A DNA stretch of 9,024 nucleotides from Naegleria gruberi (Eukaryota), in assembly GCA_000004985.1 (NCBI GenBank), contig GG739050.1. One strand, given 5' to 3'. Below, in pieces: positions 1-9,024 of this stretch. Each line of letters begins with the position of its first letter. Within the stretch, counting starts at the first letter, position 1. Made by a program: the position numbers and the translations under genes. Under the pieces are notes generated by a model, which was given only the letters and a program-made list of their open reading frames with translations, made no database searches and was not told where the DNA came from.

Positions 1-43
1 ATAAGTAATCGACAATAAACGTTCATATTGTTCTTCACAAACT

Positions 44-112
44 CTCTCAGTGTGCGTGTGAGAGCAGCGGAGGTGAGAGTGTTGTTTGTGATTGTTGTGT
101 AATAAGGCTCCA
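44..112 (+). promoter_or_regulatory. GT-rich (CA-rich on the opposite strand) element with an internal inverted repeat (CTCTCA-9nt-TGAGAG, TGAGAG repeated), about 60-130 bp upstream of the profilin-like ATG. Candidate promoter element.
   Basis: Seen in sequence: 'caaactctctcagtgtgcgtgtgagagcagcggaggtgagagtgttgtttgtgattgttgtgt' is a G/T-rich island in otherwise AT-rich 5' flank. ctctca at ~46-51 pairs with tgagag at ~61-66. G-box/CA-rich elements are known promoter elements in dictyostelids, but this one is not verified. Confidence 0.3.
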
Positions 113-174
113 CATCATCACTCAACCACTTTTTTCTTATTAAAAAAAACAACCTCCTTAATTATTATACAAAA

Positions 175-588
175 ATGGCTTCTCTTCCATGGACTGCTTG
201 GGTTCAAGGTGCTTTGTTGGCTCCTCTTGCTCAATCTGGTGCTTCTGCTGTCTTGTTGATGGGTGCTGATGGAAGTATGTGGGGTTTGGCTGGTCAATGG
301 AATGTTTCTGCTCAAGAAGCTGCCACTTTGGCTAATGCTATTAAGACTAGTGCTGGTGCTCCAATTTCTTGCACTTTGGGTGGTGTTAAATTCATGGGTA
401 TGAGAGCTGATGACTCTGAATTTGTCTCCAATTCTACTCAAAAGACTTGTGTCTGTGGTCATATGTTGAAGAAGACCACCATTGTCGTTTGGGGTGCTTT
501 GGACCATGCCAGAAATATCAATGCTGCTGTCAGTAAGGTTGCTGAAGCTTTGGCTCAAGACCCATCTGTTGCTTCCCTCTTGAACTAA
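175..588 (+). CDS. Divergent profilin-family protein. 137 aa, complete, single exon.
   Basis: Clean ORF with aaaaATG start context and TAA stop. The protein carries profilin hallmarks: N-terminal W-x-x-W (LPWTAWV), 'GADGSMWG', the 'LGGVKFMGMRADD' block (compare yeast QKFMLLRADD and the GG.KYM of other profilins), and 'KKTTIVVWGALD' (compare KTGQALVVGIYD). Codon usage is strongly biased: Leu almost all TTG, Ala GCT, Gly GGT, Lys AAG, Arg AGA. G+C is about 46% by hand count. Confidence 0.8.
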   Translation: MASLPWTAWVQGALLAPLAQSGASAVLLMGADGSMWGLAGQWNVSAQEAATLANAIKTSAGAPISCTLGGVKFMGMRADDSEFVSNSTQKTCVCGHMLKKTTIVVWGALDHARNINAAVSKVAEALAQDPSVASLLN

Positions 589-759
589 ATTGTATAAAAC
601 AAAAATTTCAAAAAAAATAACAAATTCCCGAAAAATGACATTTTATTCATCCTCATCACTTTCTTTGTTCCGATTACGAGCTAAATAATTATTAATTTCA
701 TCTAATATTGGATCTAATATTTGTGTTAATTAACCAGAAGTCTGATCGTATATTGTTGC

Positions 760-765
760 AATAAA
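760..765 (+). promoter_or_regulatory. AATAAA hexamer, a possible poly-A signal for the profilin-like gene, about 170 nt after its stop.
   Basis: Seen in sequence: 'gcaataaaaactc'. No closer canonical hexamer after the stop at 586-588. Weak. Confidence 0.2.
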
Positions 766-861
766 AACTCTTCCGATCTTTTTTATCTTACAAGAATCAT
801 CATGCTAAAATTTAGAATATTTAAATTATTAATCAATACATTACATTAAACAACAACAAAC

Positions 862-1470
862 TTTCGGAACCAATTTCTTTATTGATTTGCAACATTTTAA
901 TATATAATGTATGAATATTGTATTAAAAATTACAAATTCAATTCAATCCGTAAAATATTCCTAATAAATATATTAAAAAAATTAAATCCATCAAATATTA
1001 TTATTAACTTGAATATTGAATAAAACGAGAAACAAAATTTCGGAAATAATTTCTTTAATGATTTGCATCATTTTAATATATAATTTATTATTAGTTGAGT
1101 TGAAATCACAAATTTCATTCAATCCGTAAAATATTCCTAATAAATATATTAAAAAAAATTAAATCCATCAAATATTATTTTTAAACTAAAAAAAGAATAC
1201 ATTAATTTTAAAAGTTTCGGAATTAATTTCTTTAATGATTTGCAACATTTTAATATATAATTTATTATTAGTTGAGTTGAAATCACAAATTTCATTCATT
1301 CCGTAAAATATTCCTAATAAATATATTAAAAAAAATTAAATCCATCAAATATTATTATTAACTTGAATATTGAATAAAACGAGAAACAAAATTTCGGAAA
1401 TAATTTCTTTGATGATTTGCAACAATGTAATATTGTTAATTATTATATTGGATTTAAAATTACAAATTTC
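862..1470. repeat. Tandem array of a ~177-bp AT-rich unit. Three full copies plus a diverged partial fourth, sitting directly upstream of the Asn-rich gene.
   Basis: The anchor 'tttcgg' recurs at 862, 1038, 1215 and 1392, giving periods of 176, 177 and 177 bp. Units 2 and 3 are near-identical over 'tttcggaa(a/t)taatttctttaatgatttgca(a/t)cattttaatatataatttattattagttgagttgaaatcacaaatttcattca(a/t)tccgtaaaatattcctaataaatatattaaaaaaaattaaatccatcaaatatt'. Unit 1 shares both ends but has a different middle. Unit 4 is truncated and diverges into the promoter. Confidence 0.85.
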
Positions 1471-1508
1471 CATGATGCTTGTTTCAATAAGAATCATTTC
1501 TGAAAAAA

Positions 1509-3080
1509 ATGAATGAAGACAATCAAGAAGTAGTGAGTGAAGACAGTCAAGAAGTTATGTCTGAAGAAGAACAATCAATCCAGCCAAATCCACCATCCAA
1601 TAACAAAAATTCGGATGAGAAAATCGGATCATCTGTGTTTGTAGTAGGAGTTTCTTCTGATGATATAGATAATTTACTAGAAATTCCTTTTGAAAAGTTG
1701 ATAGAAGTTGATCAAACAACTGATAAAGCAAAGGACTTCAAGATGAAAATAGATAATTTGAACAAAATAACAACTCCAGAGAAAGAAACGCAAGATGAAG
1801 AGCAATCATCAACTTCCATATTACCAACAGAAGAACAATTAACCGATGAAGAAACAGCAAGCAACTCAATTACAACAAAACAGGCAACAAAAAAACAAGC
1901 TAACAAAAGAGGAAGAAAGAAGAAAGAAGAGAAACCAGCAACAGAACTAAGAAGATCACACAGGTTACAAAAAAAACAAGTAAATTACGAAGAGGATGAG
2001 GATGATGATGATGTTGAAGAAGAACCAGAACCCCAAACAAAGAAAACAAAACCAAATACTGAAGAAAAGAAAAATTTAAATTCTAAAATTAATGATTACA
2101 TTGAACCTGTTCAGAAATCAACATTTGCAAGTGCAAGTGGTAGTAATAATTCTAATAGTAATAATAATATTAATTCCAATAATAACAATTATAATAATAA
2201 TTTTAATAATTTAATTAATAATAATTGTAATAATTATAATTGTAATTTGAACAATAACAATTTAAATAATAATTGCAATAATTTAAATAATAATTTCAAT
2301 AATAATTGCTATAGTTTTAATAATAATTTAAATAATTTTAATAATAATTATAATAATTGTAATAACAATATTTATAATAATTTTAATAATAATAATTTTA
2401 ATAATAATTTAAATTATAATTCAAATAATAATAATAATAATTGTAATAATAATTTAAATAATAATAATTTAGATAATAGTAATAATTATTCAGATAATAA
2501 TTATAACAACAATTTTAATAATCATTTTAATAATCATTTTAATAATCATAATTACAATTATTATAATAACAATAATAATAATTTTAATAATAATCACAGA
2601 AATATCAATAATAATTATAATAATAATTTTAATAATAATTTTAATAATAATTATAGAAATTCTATAATATATAATAATAATATTAATAATAATAACAACG
2701 ATAATTATTATTTTAATAATAATTTTCCTCATTATTATACTAATGAGTTTAATAATAATATGATCAGGCCAATTAATTTCAATCCAATTAATAATGGAAT
2801 TAGTGAAAAATATTTAGATGATCTTTTATTTCGTTTATTAAATGATGCCACAATAGAATCCACAATCAAAACTACAATAAGCAAACTTCTTTCCACAAAA
2901 ATAGAAGATTCAATAAGCAACAATTTTACAAAATTATTAGCAACTCCTAACAATAATTTGCCTATTAATTCACGCAATCATTATTCTATCCTTTCCGATG
3001 CTATTTTGTTGTGTAATAATAATAATAACAAACAAATTATTATGCAGCTTTTGATGAAAATTTTAAGAGAACAACAATAA
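1509..3080 (+). CDS. Asn-rich low-complexity protein. 523 aa, complete, apparently single exon. It has an acidic N-terminus, a basic cluster (KKQANKRGRKKKEEK, NLS or AT-hook-like), a D/E run, a ~200-aa Asn domain punctuated by Y/F/C/L/I/H, and a ~110-aa non-repetitive C-terminal domain.
   Basis: Uninterrupted ORF with start context 'gaaaaaaATGaat' and a TAA stop overlapping AATAAA. Codon usage is AT-rich (AAT, AAA, TTA, AGA, GGA, ACA), like the other low-bias genes in the window. The antisense ORFs inside it are low-complexity artefacts. Confidence 0.8.
   Translation: MNEDNQEVVSEDSQEVMSEEEQSIQPNPPSNNKNSDEKIGSSVFVVGVSSDDIDNLLEIPFEKLIEVDQTTDKAKDFKMKIDNLNKITTPEKETQDEEQSSTSILPTEEQLTDEETASNSITTKQATKKQANKRGRKKKEEKPATELRRSHRLQKKQVNYEEDEDDDDVEEEPEPQTKKTKPNTEEKKNLNSKINDYIEPVQKSTFASASGSNNSNSNNNINSNNNNYNNNFNNLINNNCNNYNCNLNNNNLNNNCNNLNNNFNNNCYSFNNNLNNFNNNYNNCNNNIYNNFNNNNFNNNLNYNSNNNNNNCNNNLNNNNLDNSNNYSDNNYNNNFNNHFNNHFNNHNYNYYNNNNNNFNNNHRNINNNYNNNFNNNFNNNYRNSIIYNNNINNNNNDNYYFNNNFPHYYTNEFNNNMIRPINFNPINNGISEKYLDDLLFRLLNDATIESTIKTTISKLLSTKIEDSISNNFTKLLATPNNNLPINSRNHYSILSDAILLCNNNNNKQIIMQLLMKILREQQ
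2143..2760 (+). repeat. Coding low-complexity tract built from a degenerate (AAT)n / 12-mer 'aataataattNt' microsatellite. It encodes the N-rich domain.
   Basis: Seen in sequence: long runs of aat aat aat interrupted by t-N-t codons (tat, ttt, tgt, tta/ttg, att, cat). Short higher-order repeats such as 'aat cat ttt aat' occur three times in a row at 2521-2556. Confidence 0.8.
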
Positions 3081-3081
3081 A
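3076..3081 (+). promoter_or_regulatory. AATAAA poly-A signal overlapping the TAA stop of the Asn-rich gene.
   Basis: 'caa caa TAA aaa atg' contains AATAAA at 3076-3081. A stop embedded in the poly-A signal is common in AT-rich protist genomes. Confidence 0.4.
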
Positions 3082-3245
3082 AAATGACCACAGAATGCGA
3101 AATTTTTTTTGAAATTTTTGTTATAAATATAGTGTATTATTATACTTTTCATTGTATTTAACTTGGATTGTTTTGTCTTGAATTTAACACAAAAGATCAC
3201 TTGTTATCATTAAGCATGTGATCAAAATATTTAATAGATATTAAG

Positions 3246-3429
3246 CTAATTGTGTGATGGTGGTCTCATAATTTGAACATGAACAGTAGATCTTTCTTCA
3301 TAATCACCTGGATCATTTTCAAACATTGGTGGATACTTCCTCTGGAATCCATATTCCACTTTGAATCCTCTCTCTGTGGCCAATTTAAATAAATTCATAT
3401 CTTCCTTAATCAACCAAGGTCGGTGATGT
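3246..3429 (-). CDS. Terminal exon of a Methyltransf_16/METTL21-like protein-lysine methyltransferase gene. It encodes the last 61 aa plus the TAG stop (...S|HHRPWLIKEDMNLFKLATERGFKVEYGFQRKYPPMFENDPGDYEERSTVHVQIMRPPSHN*).
   Basis: Minus-strand reading after the intron. The ORF is open from the acceptor (tatttAG|acatcaccg) to TAG (rc of cta at 3246-3248). Its reading phase matches a phase-2 junction (tc|a = Ser). The 'Y-x-HHRPW...F...A...GF' stretch is the usual C-terminal continuation after motif III/IV in this methyltransferase family. The ORF track does not list it because the upstream exon ends in an in-frame TAA created by the donor. Confidence 0.65.
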
Positions 3430-3513
3430 CTAAATATTATTAAAATTATTATTTAATTATTATTAATAATAATATTATACAATAAGTACTATTTGAAATT
3501 AACAATTACTTAC
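3430..3513 (-). other. 84-bp spliceosomal intron (phase 2) in the methyltransferase gene. GTAAGT donor, tatttAG acceptor, about 90% A+T.
   Basis: On the minus strand the upstream exon ends '...tat tc' and is followed by 'GTAAGTaattgtt...aataatatttAG'. Unspliced, the reading is tcg TAA, an immediate stop. Spliced, it restores a 61-codon ORF with family-typical residues. Confidence 0.65.
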
Positions 3514-3823
3514 GAATATCCGACATAAATCAAAGTATTAGGATGTGACAAATATTCACAACTGTCCAACAATTGAGAATGACAAAAATGATTGAACAAC
3601 AAGTCACTCAACAGAATGATATCAAAAGTTTCCTTCTCCTCTCCTTTTCCGAATGTTTGTTCTAATTTTTCACCCCAAGCATGTCCTCTCACTTCCATCA
3701 CAGTGTTATCTTCATCAAAATTCAATGCAACATTCCTCTTGAGATTTGGAATTAAATCTCCATCATCAATATCGGTAATAATAACCTTCTTGGCTCCGAG
3801 TTTGCCACAAGCTAAACTTGGAA
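3514..3823 (-). CDS. Internal/5' exon of the same methyltransferase gene, partial, with its upstream end lost in the assembly gap. It encodes ...PSLACGKLGAKKVIITDIDDGDLIPNLKRNVALNFDEDNTVMEVRGHAWGEKLEQTFGKGEEKETFDIILLSDLLFNHFCHSQLLDSCEYLSHPNTLIYVGYS.
   Basis: Class-I SAM-methyltransferase motifs of the Methyltransf_16 family: the motif I tail 'GKLGAKKVIITD' (compare ...LGAxKVxxTD), 'LIPNLKRNVALN', 'AWGE', and motif 'FDIILLSDLLF' (compare FDxIxxSDxxY). The N-terminal part, including GxGxG and the start codon, is hidden in the N run. Confidence 0.75.
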
Positions 3824-6800
3824 NNNNNNNNNNNNNNNNNNNNNNNNNNNNNNNNNNNNNNNNNNNNNNNNNNNNNNNNNNNNNNNNNNNNNNNNNNNNN
3901 NNNNNNNNNNNNNNNNNNNNNNNNNNNNNNNNNNNNNNNNNNNNNNNNNNNNNNNNNNNNNNNNNNNNNNNNNNNNNNNNNNNNNNNNNNNNNNNNNNNN
4001 NNNNNNNNNNNNNNNNNNNNNNNNNNNNNNNNNNNNNNNNNNNNNNNNNNNNNNNNNNNNNNNNNNNNNNNNNNNNNNNNNNNNNNNNNNNNNNNNNNNN
4101 NNNNNNNNNNNNNNNNNNNNNNNNNNNNNNNNNNNNNNNNNNNNNNNNNNNNNNNNNNNNNNNNNNNNNNNNNNNNNNNNNNNNNNNNNNNNNNNNNNNN
4201 NNNNNNNNNNNNNNNNNNNNNNNNNNNNNNNNNNNNNNNNNNNNNNNNNNNNNNNNNNNNNNNNNNNNNNNNNNNNNNNNNNNNNNNNNNNNNNNNNNNN
4301 NNNNNNNNNNNNNNNNNNNNNNNNNNNNNNNNNNNNNNNNNNNNNNNNNNNNNNNNNNNNNNNNNNNNNNNNNNNNNNNNNNNNNNNNNNNNNNNNNNNN
4401 NNNNNNNNNNNNNNNNNNNNNNNNNNNNNNNNNNNNNNNNNNNNNNNNNNNNNNNNNNNNNNNNNNNNNNNNNNNNNNNNNNNNNNNNNNNNNNNNNNNN
4501 NNNNNNNNNNNNNNNNNNNNNNNNNNNNNNNNNNNNNNNNNNNNNNNNNNNNNNNNNNNNNNNNNNNNNNNNNNNNNNNNNNNNNNNNNNNNNNNNNNNN
4601 NNNNNNNNNNNNNNNNNNNNNNNNNNNNNNNNNNNNNNNNNNNNNNNNNNNNNNNNNNNNNNNNNNNNNNNNNNNNNNNNNNNNNNNNNNNNNNNNNNNN
4701 NNNNNNNNNNNNNNNNNNNNNNNNNNNNNNNNNNNNNNNNNNNNNNNNNNNNNNNNNNNNNNNNNNNNNNNNNNNNNNNNNNNNNNNNNNNNNNNNNNNN
4801 NNNNNNNNNNNNNNNNNNNNNNNNNNNNNNNNNNNNNNNNNNNNNNNNNNNNNNNNNNNNNNNNNNNNNNNNNNNNNNNNNNNNNNNNNNNNNNNNNNNN
4901 NNNNNNNNNNNNNNNNNNNNNNNNNNNNNNNNNNNNNNNNNNNNNNNNNNNNNNNNNNNNNNNNNNNNNNNNNNNNNNNNNNNNNNNNNNNNNNNNNNNN
5001 NNNNNNNNNNNNNNNNNNNNNNNNNNNNNNNNNNNNNNNNNNNNNNNNNNNNNNNNNNNNNNNNNNNNNNNNNNNNNNNNNNNNNNNNNNNNNNNNNNNN
5101 NNNNNNNNNNNNNNNNNNNNNNNNNNNNNNNNNNNNNNNNNNNNNNNNNNNNNNNNNNNNNNNNNNNNNNNNNNNNNNNNNNNNNNNNNNNNNNNNNNNN
5201 NNNNNNNNNNNNNNNNNNNNNNNNNNNNNNNNNNNNNNNNNNNNNNNNNNNNNNNNNNNNNNNNNNNNNNNNNNNNNNNNNNNNNNNNNNNNNNNNNNNN
5301 NNNNNNNNNNNNNNNNNNNNNNNNNNNNNNNNNNNNNNNNNNNNNNNNNNNNNNNNNNNNNNNNNNNNNNNNNNNNNNNNNNNNNNNNNNNNNNNNNNNN
5401 NNNNNNNNNNNNNNNNNNNNNNNNNNNNNNNNNNNNNNNNNNNNNNNNNNNNNNNNNNNNNNNNNNNNNNNNNNNNNNNNNNNNNNNNNNNNNNNNNNNN
5501 NNNNNNNNNNNNNNNNNNNNNNNNNNNNNNNNNNNNNNNNNNNNNNNNNNNNNNNNNNNNNNNNNNNNNNNNNNNNNNNNNNNNNNNNNNNNNNNNNNNN
5601 NNNNNNNNNNNNNNNNNNNNNNNNNNNNNNNNNNNNNNNNNNNNNNNNNNNNNNNNNNNNNNNNNNNNNNNNNNNNNNNNNNNNNNNNNNNNNNNNNNNN
5701 NNNNNNNNNNNNNNNNNNNNNNNNNNNNNNNNNNNNNNNNNNNNNNNNNNNNNNNNNNNNNNNNNNNNNNNNNNNNNNNNNNNNNNNNNNNNNNNNNNNN
5801 NNNNNNNNNNNNNNNNNNNNNNNNNNNNNNNNNNNNNNNNNNNNNNNNNNNNNNNNNNNNNNNNNNNNNNNNNNNNNNNNNNNNNNNNNNNNNNNNNNNN
5901 NNNNNNNNNNNNNNNNNNNNNNNNNNNNNNNNNNNNNNNNNNNNNNNNNNNNNNNNNNNNNNNNNNNNNNNNNNNNNNNNNNNNNNNNNNNNNNNNNNNN
6001 NNNNNNNNNNNNNNNNNNNNNNNNNNNNNNNNNNNNNNNNNNNNNNNNNNNNNNNNNNNNNNNNNNNNNNNNNNNNNNNNNNNNNNNNNNNNNNNNNNNN
6101 NNNNNNNNNNNNNNNNNNNNNNNNNNNNNNNNNNNNNNNNNNNNNNNNNNNNNNNNNNNNNNNNNNNNNNNNNNNNNNNNNNNNNNNNNNNNNNNNNNNN
6201 NNNNNNNNNNNNNNNNNNNNNNNNNNNNNNNNNNNNNNNNNNNNNNNNNNNNNNNNNNNNNNNNNNNNNNNNNNNNNNNNNNNNNNNNNNNNNNNNNNNN
6301 NNNNNNNNNNNNNNNNNNNNNNNNNNNNNNNNNNNNNNNNNNNNNNNNNNNNNNNNNNNNNNNNNNNNNNNNNNNNNNNNNNNNNNNNNNNNNNNNNNNN
6401 NNNNNNNNNNNNNNNNNNNNNNNNNNNNNNNNNNNNNNNNNNNNNNNNNNNNNNNNNNNNNNNNNNNNNNNNNNNNNNNNNNNNNNNNNNNNNNNNNNNN
6501 NNNNNNNNNNNNNNNNNNNNNNNNNNNNNNNNNNNNNNNNNNNNNNNNNNNNNNNNNNNNNNNNNNNNNNNNNNNNNNNNNNNNNNNNNNNNNNNNNNNN
6601 NNNNNNNNNNNNNNNNNNNNNNNNNNNNNNNNNNNNNNNNNNNNNNNNNNNNNNNNNNNNNNNNNNNNNNNNNNNNNNNNNNNNNNNNNNNNNNNNNNNN
6701 NNNNNNNNNNNNNNNNNNNNNNNNNNNNNNNNNNNNNNNNNNNNNNNNNNNNNNNNNNNNNNNNNNNNNNNNNNNNNNNNNNNNNNNNNNNNNNNNNNNN

Positions 6801-7548
6801 NNNNNNNNNNNNNNNNNNNNNNNNNNNNNNNNNNNNNNNNNNNNNNNNNNNNNNNNNNNNNNNNNNNNNNNNNNNNNNNNNNNNNNNNNNNNNNNNNNNN
6901 NNNNNNNNNNNNNNNNNNNNNNNNNNNNNNNNNNNNNNNNNNNNNNNNNNNNNNNNNNNNNNNNNNNNNNNNNNNNNNNNNNNNNNNNNNNNNNNNNNNN
7001 NNNNNNNNNNNNNNNNNNNNNNNNNNNNNNNNNNNNNNNNNNNNNNNNNNNNNNNNNNNNNNNNNNNNNNNNNNNNNNNNNNNNNNNNNNNNNNNNNNNN
7101 NNNNNNNNNNNNNNNNNNNNNNNNNNNNNNNNNNNNNNNNNNNNNNNNNNNNNNNNNNNNNNNNNNNNNNNNNNNNNNNNNNNNNNNNNNNNNNNNNNNN
7201 NNNNNNNNNNNNNNNNNNNNNNNNNNNNNNNNNNNNNNNNNNNNNNNNNNNNNNNNNNNNNNNNNNNNNNNNNNNNNNNNNNNNNNNNNNNNNNNNNNNN
7301 NNNNNNNNNNNNNNNNNNNNNNNNNNNNNNNNNNNNNNNNNNNNNNNNNNNNNNNNNNNNNNNNNNNNNNNNNNNNNNNNNNNNNNNNNNNNNNNNNNNN
7401 NNNNNNNNNNNNNNNNNNNNNNNNNNNNNNNNNNNNNNNNNNNNNNNNNNNNNNNNNNNNNNNNNNNNNNNNNNNNNNNNNNNNNNNNNNNNNNNNNNNN
7501 NNNNNNNNNNNNNNNNNNNNNNNNNNNNNNNNNNNNNNNNNNNNNNNN
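3824..7548. other. Assembly gap of 3,725 consecutive N. No sequence information.
   Basis: Seen directly. The ORFs 3592-7722(+), 3812-7594(-), 3818-7582(+) and most of 3510-8297(-) are read-through artefacts (poly-X). Confidence 0.99.
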
Positions 7549-8270
7549 ACGTATGCAAGTCCTTCATTACCAAGCCAATTAACGGAAATACCAAGATTGG
7601 TCAATTGTTTCAATTCACTTAAATATTTTGCTCCTTCAACACCAACACTATTTTCAGCAATAAATAGAGTGGTCAATTGGTTCAATTCACTTATATATTT
7701 AGATCCTTTAGCACCAATATGATTGCCATAAATATTAAGAGTGGTTAATTGTTTCAATTCACTTAGGTATTTAGCTCCAATATGAAAAATATTATGACTA
7801 CGAATATCAAGATTGGTCAATTGTTTCAATTCGCTAATATATCTAACTCCCTCACCACGAATTTGACTGCCATATATATGAAGACTTTTTAATTGTTTCA
7901 ATTCACTTAGATGATGAACTTCTTCTTCTTCAATTCTAATAACAAGTTTAGTTAGTGATTTCATCAAGATTAATTTTTTAAAAGTATCCTCACTCGTTGC
8001 ATTAACTTTAAGAGTTGCAATATTCTGTAAAAATTGGCCACTCATTTCGACACCAAATTTACAATTCGAATCAAGATTATTACATGTTGATAAAATAACA
8101 TTGTACCACTGTTTGGATACCAATGCACAATGCAAGACAATAAAATTAAAATCTTCAAAGAAGGAAATAATTTCATATATAATGTCATTGTGAAATTTAT
8201 AGTCTTGTGCTACGTTCATCATCAACAAGTCCTTTGAAAGTTGTGATTTACATGTTGTGAGTTTTTCCAT
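7549..8270 (-). CDS. F-box/leucine-rich-repeat protein, N-terminal ~240 aa. The 3' remainder is lost in the gap. There is an F-box-like motif near the N-terminus and at least five 24-aa RNI-type LRRs (LSELKQLTNLDIRSHNIFHIGAKY...).
   Basis: The preferred start is the ATG at 8270 ('tcattaaaaaaaATGgaaaaactc' -> MEKLTTCKSQ...). The ORF-track start at 8297 is a TTG. The F-box-like segment is 'DIIYEIISFFEDFNFIVLHCALVSKQWYNVI', with the conserved hydrophobic spacing and the S/C-K-x-W of F-boxes. It is followed by repeated 'LSELKQL(T/K)(N/S/T)L-I-G--IG--G-KY' units. Codon usage (TTA/TTG, CGT/AGA, GGT) matches the neighbouring low-bias genes. Confidence 0.75.
7590..7925 (-). repeat. 72-bp periodic coding repeat (24-aa LRR units) with high nucleotide-level identity. 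Five copies are visible and the array continues into the gap.
   Basis: Plus-strand 'ggtcaattgtttcaattcactt' and variants recur at 7599, 7671, 7743 and 7815, with '..taattgtttcaattcactt' ending at 7895. The period is exactly 72 bp. The sequence right at the gap edge (7549-7590) still encodes LRR-like ...GISVNWLGNEGLAY. Confidence 0.85.
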
Positions 8271-8424
8271 TTTTTTTAATGATAAAGTGATCAACAAATT
8301 TATTTTCAGGTCAACTCGACATTCGAGTATGATGAAAGGTAAATGAAAACATCATGGGAAAAGTTCTAGTTAAATTATCATTAACACGAACAAGGGACAT
8401 TAGATATTTGAAAACAATTGGTAT

Positions 8425-9024
8425 CTATTTATTGGAAGAGTTTACTAAGGCTCTCCTTGAGAAGCTTGTTAGTTTTCTCCACTTTTTATCATAGCCACCA
8501 CATACGACCATCAAGTGCTCGCTCCAACTTCCAAATTCGTACACACTTTCTTCATCAGTGGATGGTAGGCAACTTCTTGGATATTGAACTACATCCATGC
8601 ATAGAATTCTATCTCCCACAGAGGATTGAGAAATTGGTTTGAAAGATATTGGATCCCAAAATCTAACAACTCCATCAAAACCACTGGAAATTATTGATCT
8701 ACCGCATGATGGCTCATACATGATAGTATTCATCAGTTTACCACTTGCTGGTATAGAGTAAACTGGATCTTGTTTAAATTGTTCAGGATTGGAATCTGTT
8801 TGTTTGGCAGCAATAGTTTGACTAATATTTCTTAAATCCCAAACGTTAATCAAACCATCCACACCACCAGTAACCAAATTAATACCATTGTATGGATTGA
8901 ATGAGCAATTGAGTACCTCCTTGACATGGTGAACAAGGTTGGCCACCAACAAGCCAGTTCTTAAATCCCATAATTTGACAATACCATTCATATCAGTTGT
9001 ACACAATAATCCTCCATCAGGATA
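8425..9024 (-). CDS. WD40-repeat protein, C-terminal ~199 aa. The gene continues beyond the window end, and the stop TAG is at 8425-8427.
   Basis: Open minus-strand frame from the window edge ([26 protein letters not shown]...). It has repeated WD signatures: 'IVKLWDL', 'LINVWDL', 'VVRFWDP', each preceded by G/D-rich strands (TGGVDG, SSGFDG). The ORF-track 'start' at 9006 is a TTG and not a real start. Confidence 0.75.

Follow-up and report, generated by a model that had tools for sequence, protein, structure and literature searches.

The gene that runs into the assembly gap of the DNA analysed here is probably an ordinary member of an F-box-like/leucine rich repeat (LRR) family, cut by a scaffold gap, with a complete protein of ~300–400 amino acids and no giant repeat array. 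It is a newly recognised, mis-annotated family member, that is, an ordinary gene to which artefacts of assembly and annotation have been added. The window, meaning the whole stretch of DNA that was analysed, is an entire 9,024-bp scaffold of Naegleria gruberi, and what can be seen of the gene would be the 5' two-thirds or so. The family appears to consist of lineage-specific small proteins in which a divergent F-box is followed by a short horseshoe of 24-residue LRRs of the ribonuclease-inhibitor (RI) type. In the literature, nothing specific was found that describes a Naegleria F-box/LRR family.

The scaffold and the visible part of the gene

Two pieces of the scaffold are sequenced (1–3823 and 7549–9024), and between them lies a run of 3,725 N (3824–7548, no strand). 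The right contig, 7549–9024, is 1,476 bp long and is linked to the remainder of the scaffold across these Ns alone. On the minus strand the order is a WD40-repeat gene fragment, the LRR gene, the gap, and the 3' part of a Methyltransf_16 gene, and on the plus strand there are a profilin gene (175–588) and an Asn-rich ORF (1509–3080). The WD40 fragment (8425–9024, minus strand) extends past the scaffold end, and its stop codon is 154 bp upstream of the ATG of the LRR gene. A search of a word-indexed protein collection with this fragment gave zero matches at E≤1e-20, a strict threshold that excludes just an identical annotated copy. The profilin gene (plus strand) has a GC content of ~42%, far above its neighbours, and a codon preference of its own (GCT, GGT, TCT, TTG), as expected for a highly expressed gene. 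The spacer between it and the Asn-rich ORF contains an AT-rich tandem repeat of 177 bp (855–1470, 3.5 copies, 84% matches). The ORF, of 523 amino acids on the plus strand, has an acidic/basic N-terminal third and an Asn-rich tract of ~200 residues, where GC falls to 7% (2251–2700). It is without a Pfam match, and its exact sequence is absent from the protein collection.

The visible coding sequence of the LRR gene (7549–8270, minus strand) consists of 240 codons plus two bases. It starts with an ATG at 8270–8268, meets no stop codon before the gap, and ends there with the peptide GISVNWLGNEGLAY. The F-box-like domain covers amino acids 25–66 (8073–8198, minus strand), with the motif DIIYEIISFF...CALVSKQWYNVI and predicted helices at 30–36, 41–48 and 53–63. 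Amino acids 77–120 (7911–8042, minus strand; FLQNIATLKV ... MKSLTKLVI) form a linker and a degenerate first LRR or cap, as seen from a paralog alignment and from strands at 86–89 and 108–112 in the AlphaFold2 (AF2) model. Then come five canonical LRR units of 24 amino acids, or 72 nucleotides (7551–7910, minus strand), on which Tandem Repeats Finder (TRF), matches to a repeated core, Pfam and the AF2 model agree. In the order of translation these units are at 7839–7910, 7767–7838, 7695–7766, 7623–7694 and 7551–7622, all on the minus strand, and their consensus is [LI]SELKQLTxLxIxxNxIGxxGAKY. The two remaining bases (7549–7550) read GT on the minus strand; they begin the next codon, and serve as a false splice donor in the public gene model. 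Since they open a further codon past the last complete unit, the contig stops inside the LRR array and inside the coding region. The initial annotation had likewise placed the start of the gap within the array.

The N-terminal domain and the class of the LRRs

An F-box-like motif followed by "RNI-type 24-aa LRRs" was what the initial annotation had read in this protein, naming Pfam models for both. The LRR part holds at the level of the single protein, with PF13516 (LRR_6) at 30.7 bits against a cut-off of 23.4, and the F-box part holds at the level of a family profile. In the window protein itself, PF00646 (F-box) and PF12937 (F-box-like) both match amino acids 28–63 below their gathering thresholds, the former at 18.8 bits against 20.5 (E=1.5e-3) and the latter at 15.0 bits against 24.3. 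Similarly weak F-box matches are found in 7 of the 16 family members scanned, and precomputed annotations place an F-box on no paralog. The LP dipeptide that is canonical in F-boxes is absent from the window protein.

Profiles built from the family reach further. A profile of the N-termini of seven paralogs, run against all PDB sequences, gave three matches, all of them F-box proteins and none significant. The same profile, run against 1.84 billion representative sequences, found 65 proteins at E≤1e-3, and a 50-sequence family profile built from these 65 was then run against the PDB sequences. Here FBXO42 was matched at E=2.6e-5, and of the 17 matches at E≤10, 16 belong to F-box proteins, with the alignment on the F-box in each case; among them are FBXO44, KDM2A/B, COI1, FBXO3, FBXL2, FBXL5, beta-TrCP, Cdc4 and FBXW8. 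At the level of the family profile, the N-terminal domain is thus homologous to F-boxes that have been solved by experiment. The three predicted helices superpose on the F-box of Skp2, in a region where the pLDDT of the full-length AF2 model is 55–67, and a Foldseek search with the isolated N-terminal model gave no meaningful matches. Judged by its sequence, the N-terminal domain is a true homolog of F-boxes, if a divergent one, with putative Skp1 binding.

The LRR domain itself is much clearer. LRR_14, LRR_8, LRR_6 and LRR_4 all score above their cut-offs at amino acids 116–232, and LRR_6 is matched in all 16 family members scanned. In the AF2 model, as read by DSSP, short strands alternate with 8-residue helices, and the LRRs have pLDDT values of 90–98. 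Both the PF13516 score and this alternation of strand and helix place the repeats in the RI-like class, so that the "RNI-type" label is acceptable, with the caveat that classical RI-like units have 28–29 residues and the units here have 24. Foldseek matches of the full model to RI-like LRRs include NOD2, NLRP3 and Rna1p (LRR_6 is typical of RanGAP and NLR proteins), but next to the shorter unit, the window protein also differs from these in that an F-box-like head takes the place of a NACHT or GAP context.

The closest likeness in architecture is to the FBXL receptors such as Skp2, FBXL2 and FBXL17. In these, a three-helix F-box at the N-terminus is followed directly by an LRR horseshoe, and in the window protein the LRR domain lies directly C-terminal to the F-box-like domain, which in the family is in register with solved F-boxes. 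Near-full-length Foldseek matches of the full model are to FBXL2–SKP1 (6o60_C, TMq 0.63), Skp2 (1fs2_A) and FBXL17 (6w66_B). Classical FBXL LRRs are 26-residue, cysteine-containing units, whereas those of the window gene have 24 residues with an RI-type N-x-IG-x-EGA signature, and its F-box is divergent, below the Pfam cut-offs and without LP. If the protein works as FBXL proteins do, its F-box would dock on Skp1, and a substrate destined for SCF-dependent ubiquitination would be bound by the concave face of the LRRs.

In Foldseek, the best E-value goes to a Legionella protein (4q62), and Listeria internalins come next. There is also a weak NCBIfam match to XopAE of Xanthomonas, and metagenome relatives carry the source label "internalin A". 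Unlike these LRR effectors of bacteria associated with amoebae, the window gene lies in a eukaryotic scaffold, and the likeness is limited to the generic LRR solenoid. A bacterial origin of the gene, as the internalin and Legionella structural matches might imply, was rejected in view of this eukaryotic context and of the Naegleria paralogs; the scaffold is recognised as eukaryotic by the spliceosomal intron of the neighbouring gene and by the profilin gene close by.

Relatedness of the units, and what the gap may hold

The exact 72-bp period that had been described is real and far beyond chance. TRF reports a period of 72 at 7586–7912 (4.5 copies, 72% matches, no indels), and a 22-nt core, GGTCAATTGTTTCAATTCACTT, recurs exactly every 72 nt in five copies that have 0, 1, 1, 2 and 3 mismatches; in 200 shuffles there was no match to it. 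The core had been called almost invariant, but synonymous differences occur even within it (AGC vs AGT, TTA vs TTG, CTA vs CTT). The units as a whole are not near-identical, as had been stated. In pairwise comparisons the five 72-nt units are 62–81% identical (mean 70%). Identity is 85% over the 30-nt core that opens each unit and encodes xSELKQLTxL, and drops to 59% over the 42 nt that follow; the encoded peptides are 52% identical. The units thus fall short of the ~95% identity or more that would be expected of an array prone to collapse.

Some common history of the units is nonetheless visible in their codons. Residues that two units have in common are encoded by identical codons 76% of the time. 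In 5,000 simulation runs the protein sequences were kept fixed and codons were drawn either from the other genes of the window or from a paralog; the simulated codon identity was 46–47% (sd 0.05), and 76% was reached in none of the runs. As an example, all four units with a Thr in QLT encode it by ACC, a codon that makes up 2% of the Thr codons elsewhere in the window. This difference between observed and simulated codon identity shows that units have indeed been duplicated or homogenised to some extent. The paralog used for comparison is the DNA of a single gene (L003), which is complete, encodes 367 amino acids and comes from a metagenome with a Naegleria in it; the synonymous codon sharing that marks concerted evolution or recent unit duplication is in excess of this paralog as well as of the simulations. 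The units of L003 are 50% alike in their nucleotides and share 55% of codons among themselves, in contrast to 76% in the window gene, and 58% with the units of the window gene. Of the recent expansion or concerted evolution that the initial annotation had deduced, the shared codons bear out a degree of common descent, but "recent" is refuted by the 19–38% divergence of the units; the signal is old or weak enough for that divergence to have built up, and the array is neither recent nor strongly homogenised. The 72-bp periodicity would then be the coding periodicity of a 24-aa LRR, and the 22-nt core, which encodes the family-wide SE[LM]KQLT, would reflect selection on the protein together with some common ancestry or homogenisation of units.

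The lengths of the relatives point the same way. The closest ones are N. gruberi paralogs of 241–342 amino acids and the metagenomic Naegleria paralog (P0007/L003) of 367 amino acids, for which the stop codon was verified. These paralogs (P0002–P0006 and P0007/L003) have the same N-terminal domain and the SE[ML]KQLT core in their LRRs, at 34–48% identity; with 45–48% at best, none of them is an allele or duplicate of the window gene, and a protein homology search found no second copy of it. The 65 representatives that have the N-terminal domain are 74 to 655 amino acids long. Since relatives sharing the N-terminus are no longer than this, and the closest ones much shorter, the dozens of 24-aa units that had been proposed are unlikely and would have no precedent within the family. 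The complete protein most likely has ~300–400 amino acids, with roughly 2–6 more units and a short tail still to come. The remainder of the estimated ~3.7-kb gap would be taken up by the 5' end of the methyltransferase, spacers, and possibly another gene or element. With a gene this short, ~2.5 kb of the estimated gap is unaccounted for; a further gene or a repeat may lie there, or the size may have been estimated imprecisely.

The profilin gene is found again on a 941,567-bp N. gruberi scaffold (P0093, EFC49660.1, 101 amino acids, partial at both ends), and so is the methyltransferase gene, as a partial model (P0088). At least the left contig therefore looks like a redundant, probably allelic copy, and the region on the large scaffold is itself fragmented. 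These duplicated flanking genes point to haplotype or assembly redundancy; in the literature, nothing specific was found on haplotype redundancy of the N. gruberi assembly. The scaffold on which the gene meets its gap thus seems to be a small one that in part repeats sequence of a far larger scaffold. In addition, two independent assemblies of metagenome run ERR1078381 (L001 and L002) are 98–99% identical to the window and join 598 straight to 3118. They lack 599–3117, to which 1463–1471 of L001 corresponds, and so have neither the 177-bp tandem array nor the Asn-rich ORF; the flanks of this 2.5-kb indel are TTGTATAAA and TTGTTATAAA. Structural heterogeneity and extreme AT-richness may thus be alternative causes of the assembly trouble here.

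In the initial annotation, the gap was the result of repeat collapse in a long array, recently expanded or concertedly evolving, which would have hidden dozens of near-identical 72-bp units. Several observations are in line with this: the contig stops in the array after a complete unit and at the start of another codon, the estimated 3,725 bp would fit ~40 units after the methyltransferase part, codon identity among the units is 76% where ~47% is expected, and in some paralogs (P0005, P0028) the units are very regular. An assembler would, however, keep apart units that are 19–38% diverged, paralogs whose arrays are more regular have been assembled on large scaffolds, and none of the 65 relatives of the N-terminus exceeds 655 amino acids (241–367 for the closest). 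Moreover, poor assembly is explained otherwise, by the genes on the other side of the gap that are duplicated as partial models and by the 2.5-kb indel in a 99%-identical strain. We regard the collapse of a long array as very improbable. It is also distinctly unlikely, if slightly less so, that the contig 7549–9024 was wrongly scaffolded beside the methyltransferase contig, in which case the gap would say nothing about the length of the gene or its neighbour. This would fit a contig of just 1,476 bp that is joined solely across Ns, and the fact that the genes of the left contig are duplicated on the 941,567-bp scaffold and no second copy was found of the LRR gene and the WD40 fragment. On the other hand, nothing found contradicts the scaffold link directly, the WD40, LRR and methyltransferase genes are all on the minus strand, and the one spacer that can be measured, between the WD40 and LRR genes, is 154 bp.

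A different kind of doubt concerns the function of the N-terminus rather than the length of the gene. If it were a degenerate relic of an F-box, or an unrelated helical cap, the protein would be a plain LRR adaptor outside SCF. The sub-threshold Pfam scores, the paralogs without a precomputed F-box annotation, the missing LP dipeptide, the empty Foldseek search with the isolated domain and the low pLDDT of the region are all compatible with this, and with the family profile aligned on solved F-boxes we consider it unlikely. An F-box-like/LRR gene of ordinary length, interrupted by a scaffold gap, is the reading that we prefer.

The methyltransferase neighbour and the public gene model

On the far side of the gap is the 3' part of an EFM7-like Methyltransf_16 gene (3246–3823, minus strand), with an exon at 3514–3823, an 84-nt GT..AG intron at 3430–3513 and the last exon at 3246–3429. 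Here, 163 residues of the protein are visible. The identical copy on the other N. gruberi scaffold (P0088, EFC49475.1) extends 40 residues beyond these, and the orthologs of Naegleria lovaniensis (source name EFM7-like) and Willaertia magna have 272 and 268 amino acids, so ~109 residues of the methyltransferase, or at least ~330 bp, must be in the gap. The gap must therefore contain these codons as well as the 3' end of the LRR gene and an intergenic spacer, and the space for them also tells against dozens of hidden LRR units. In another heterolobosean contig (L004), with a methyltransferase 67% identical, the upstream gene is acidic and of low complexity, not an LRR gene.

An ORF of 1595 amino acids that spans both genes had been called an artificial fusion, and rightly, as it reads through the Ns. 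The public gene model repeats this error in another form. XP_002668473.1 (EFC35729.1, NAEGRDRAFT_76614), deposited as "predicted protein [Naegleria gruberi]", is 100% identical in its residues 1–165 to amino acids 76–240 of the visible coding sequence. It starts at the internal Met76, and the F-box is thereby omitted. From the donor GT at 7550–7549 it then makes a false intron to an acceptor AG at 3739–3738, which removes the whole gap and ~85 nt of methyltransferase coding sequence, and resumes in the methyltransferase at RNVALNF. XP_002668473.1 is in fact a chimera of LRR protein and methyltransferase without an F-box, in which the gap has been taken as an intron. As this intron starts at the edge of the gap, the N-run must already have been present in the assembly that was annotated. 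That the Ns are a mask added later was considered and rejected, since the false intron begins at the GT directly before them.

There is a slim chance, put even lower than that of the collapsed array, that the gap hides a much longer and partly homogenised LRR array, and that the family is a rapidly diversifying repertoire of SCF receptors. If this were true, the receptors might be directed, for example, against intracellular bacteria or viruses, with unit duplication and gene conversion varying the binding surface. For the ordinary F-box-like/LRR gene that we favour, the finding matters mainly for annotation, in that XP_002668473.1 fuses an LRR protein to an EFM7-like methyltransferase. And given that the precomputed Pfam annotations of the family members are without an F-box, the counts of SCF receptors in N. 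gruberi are probably too low.
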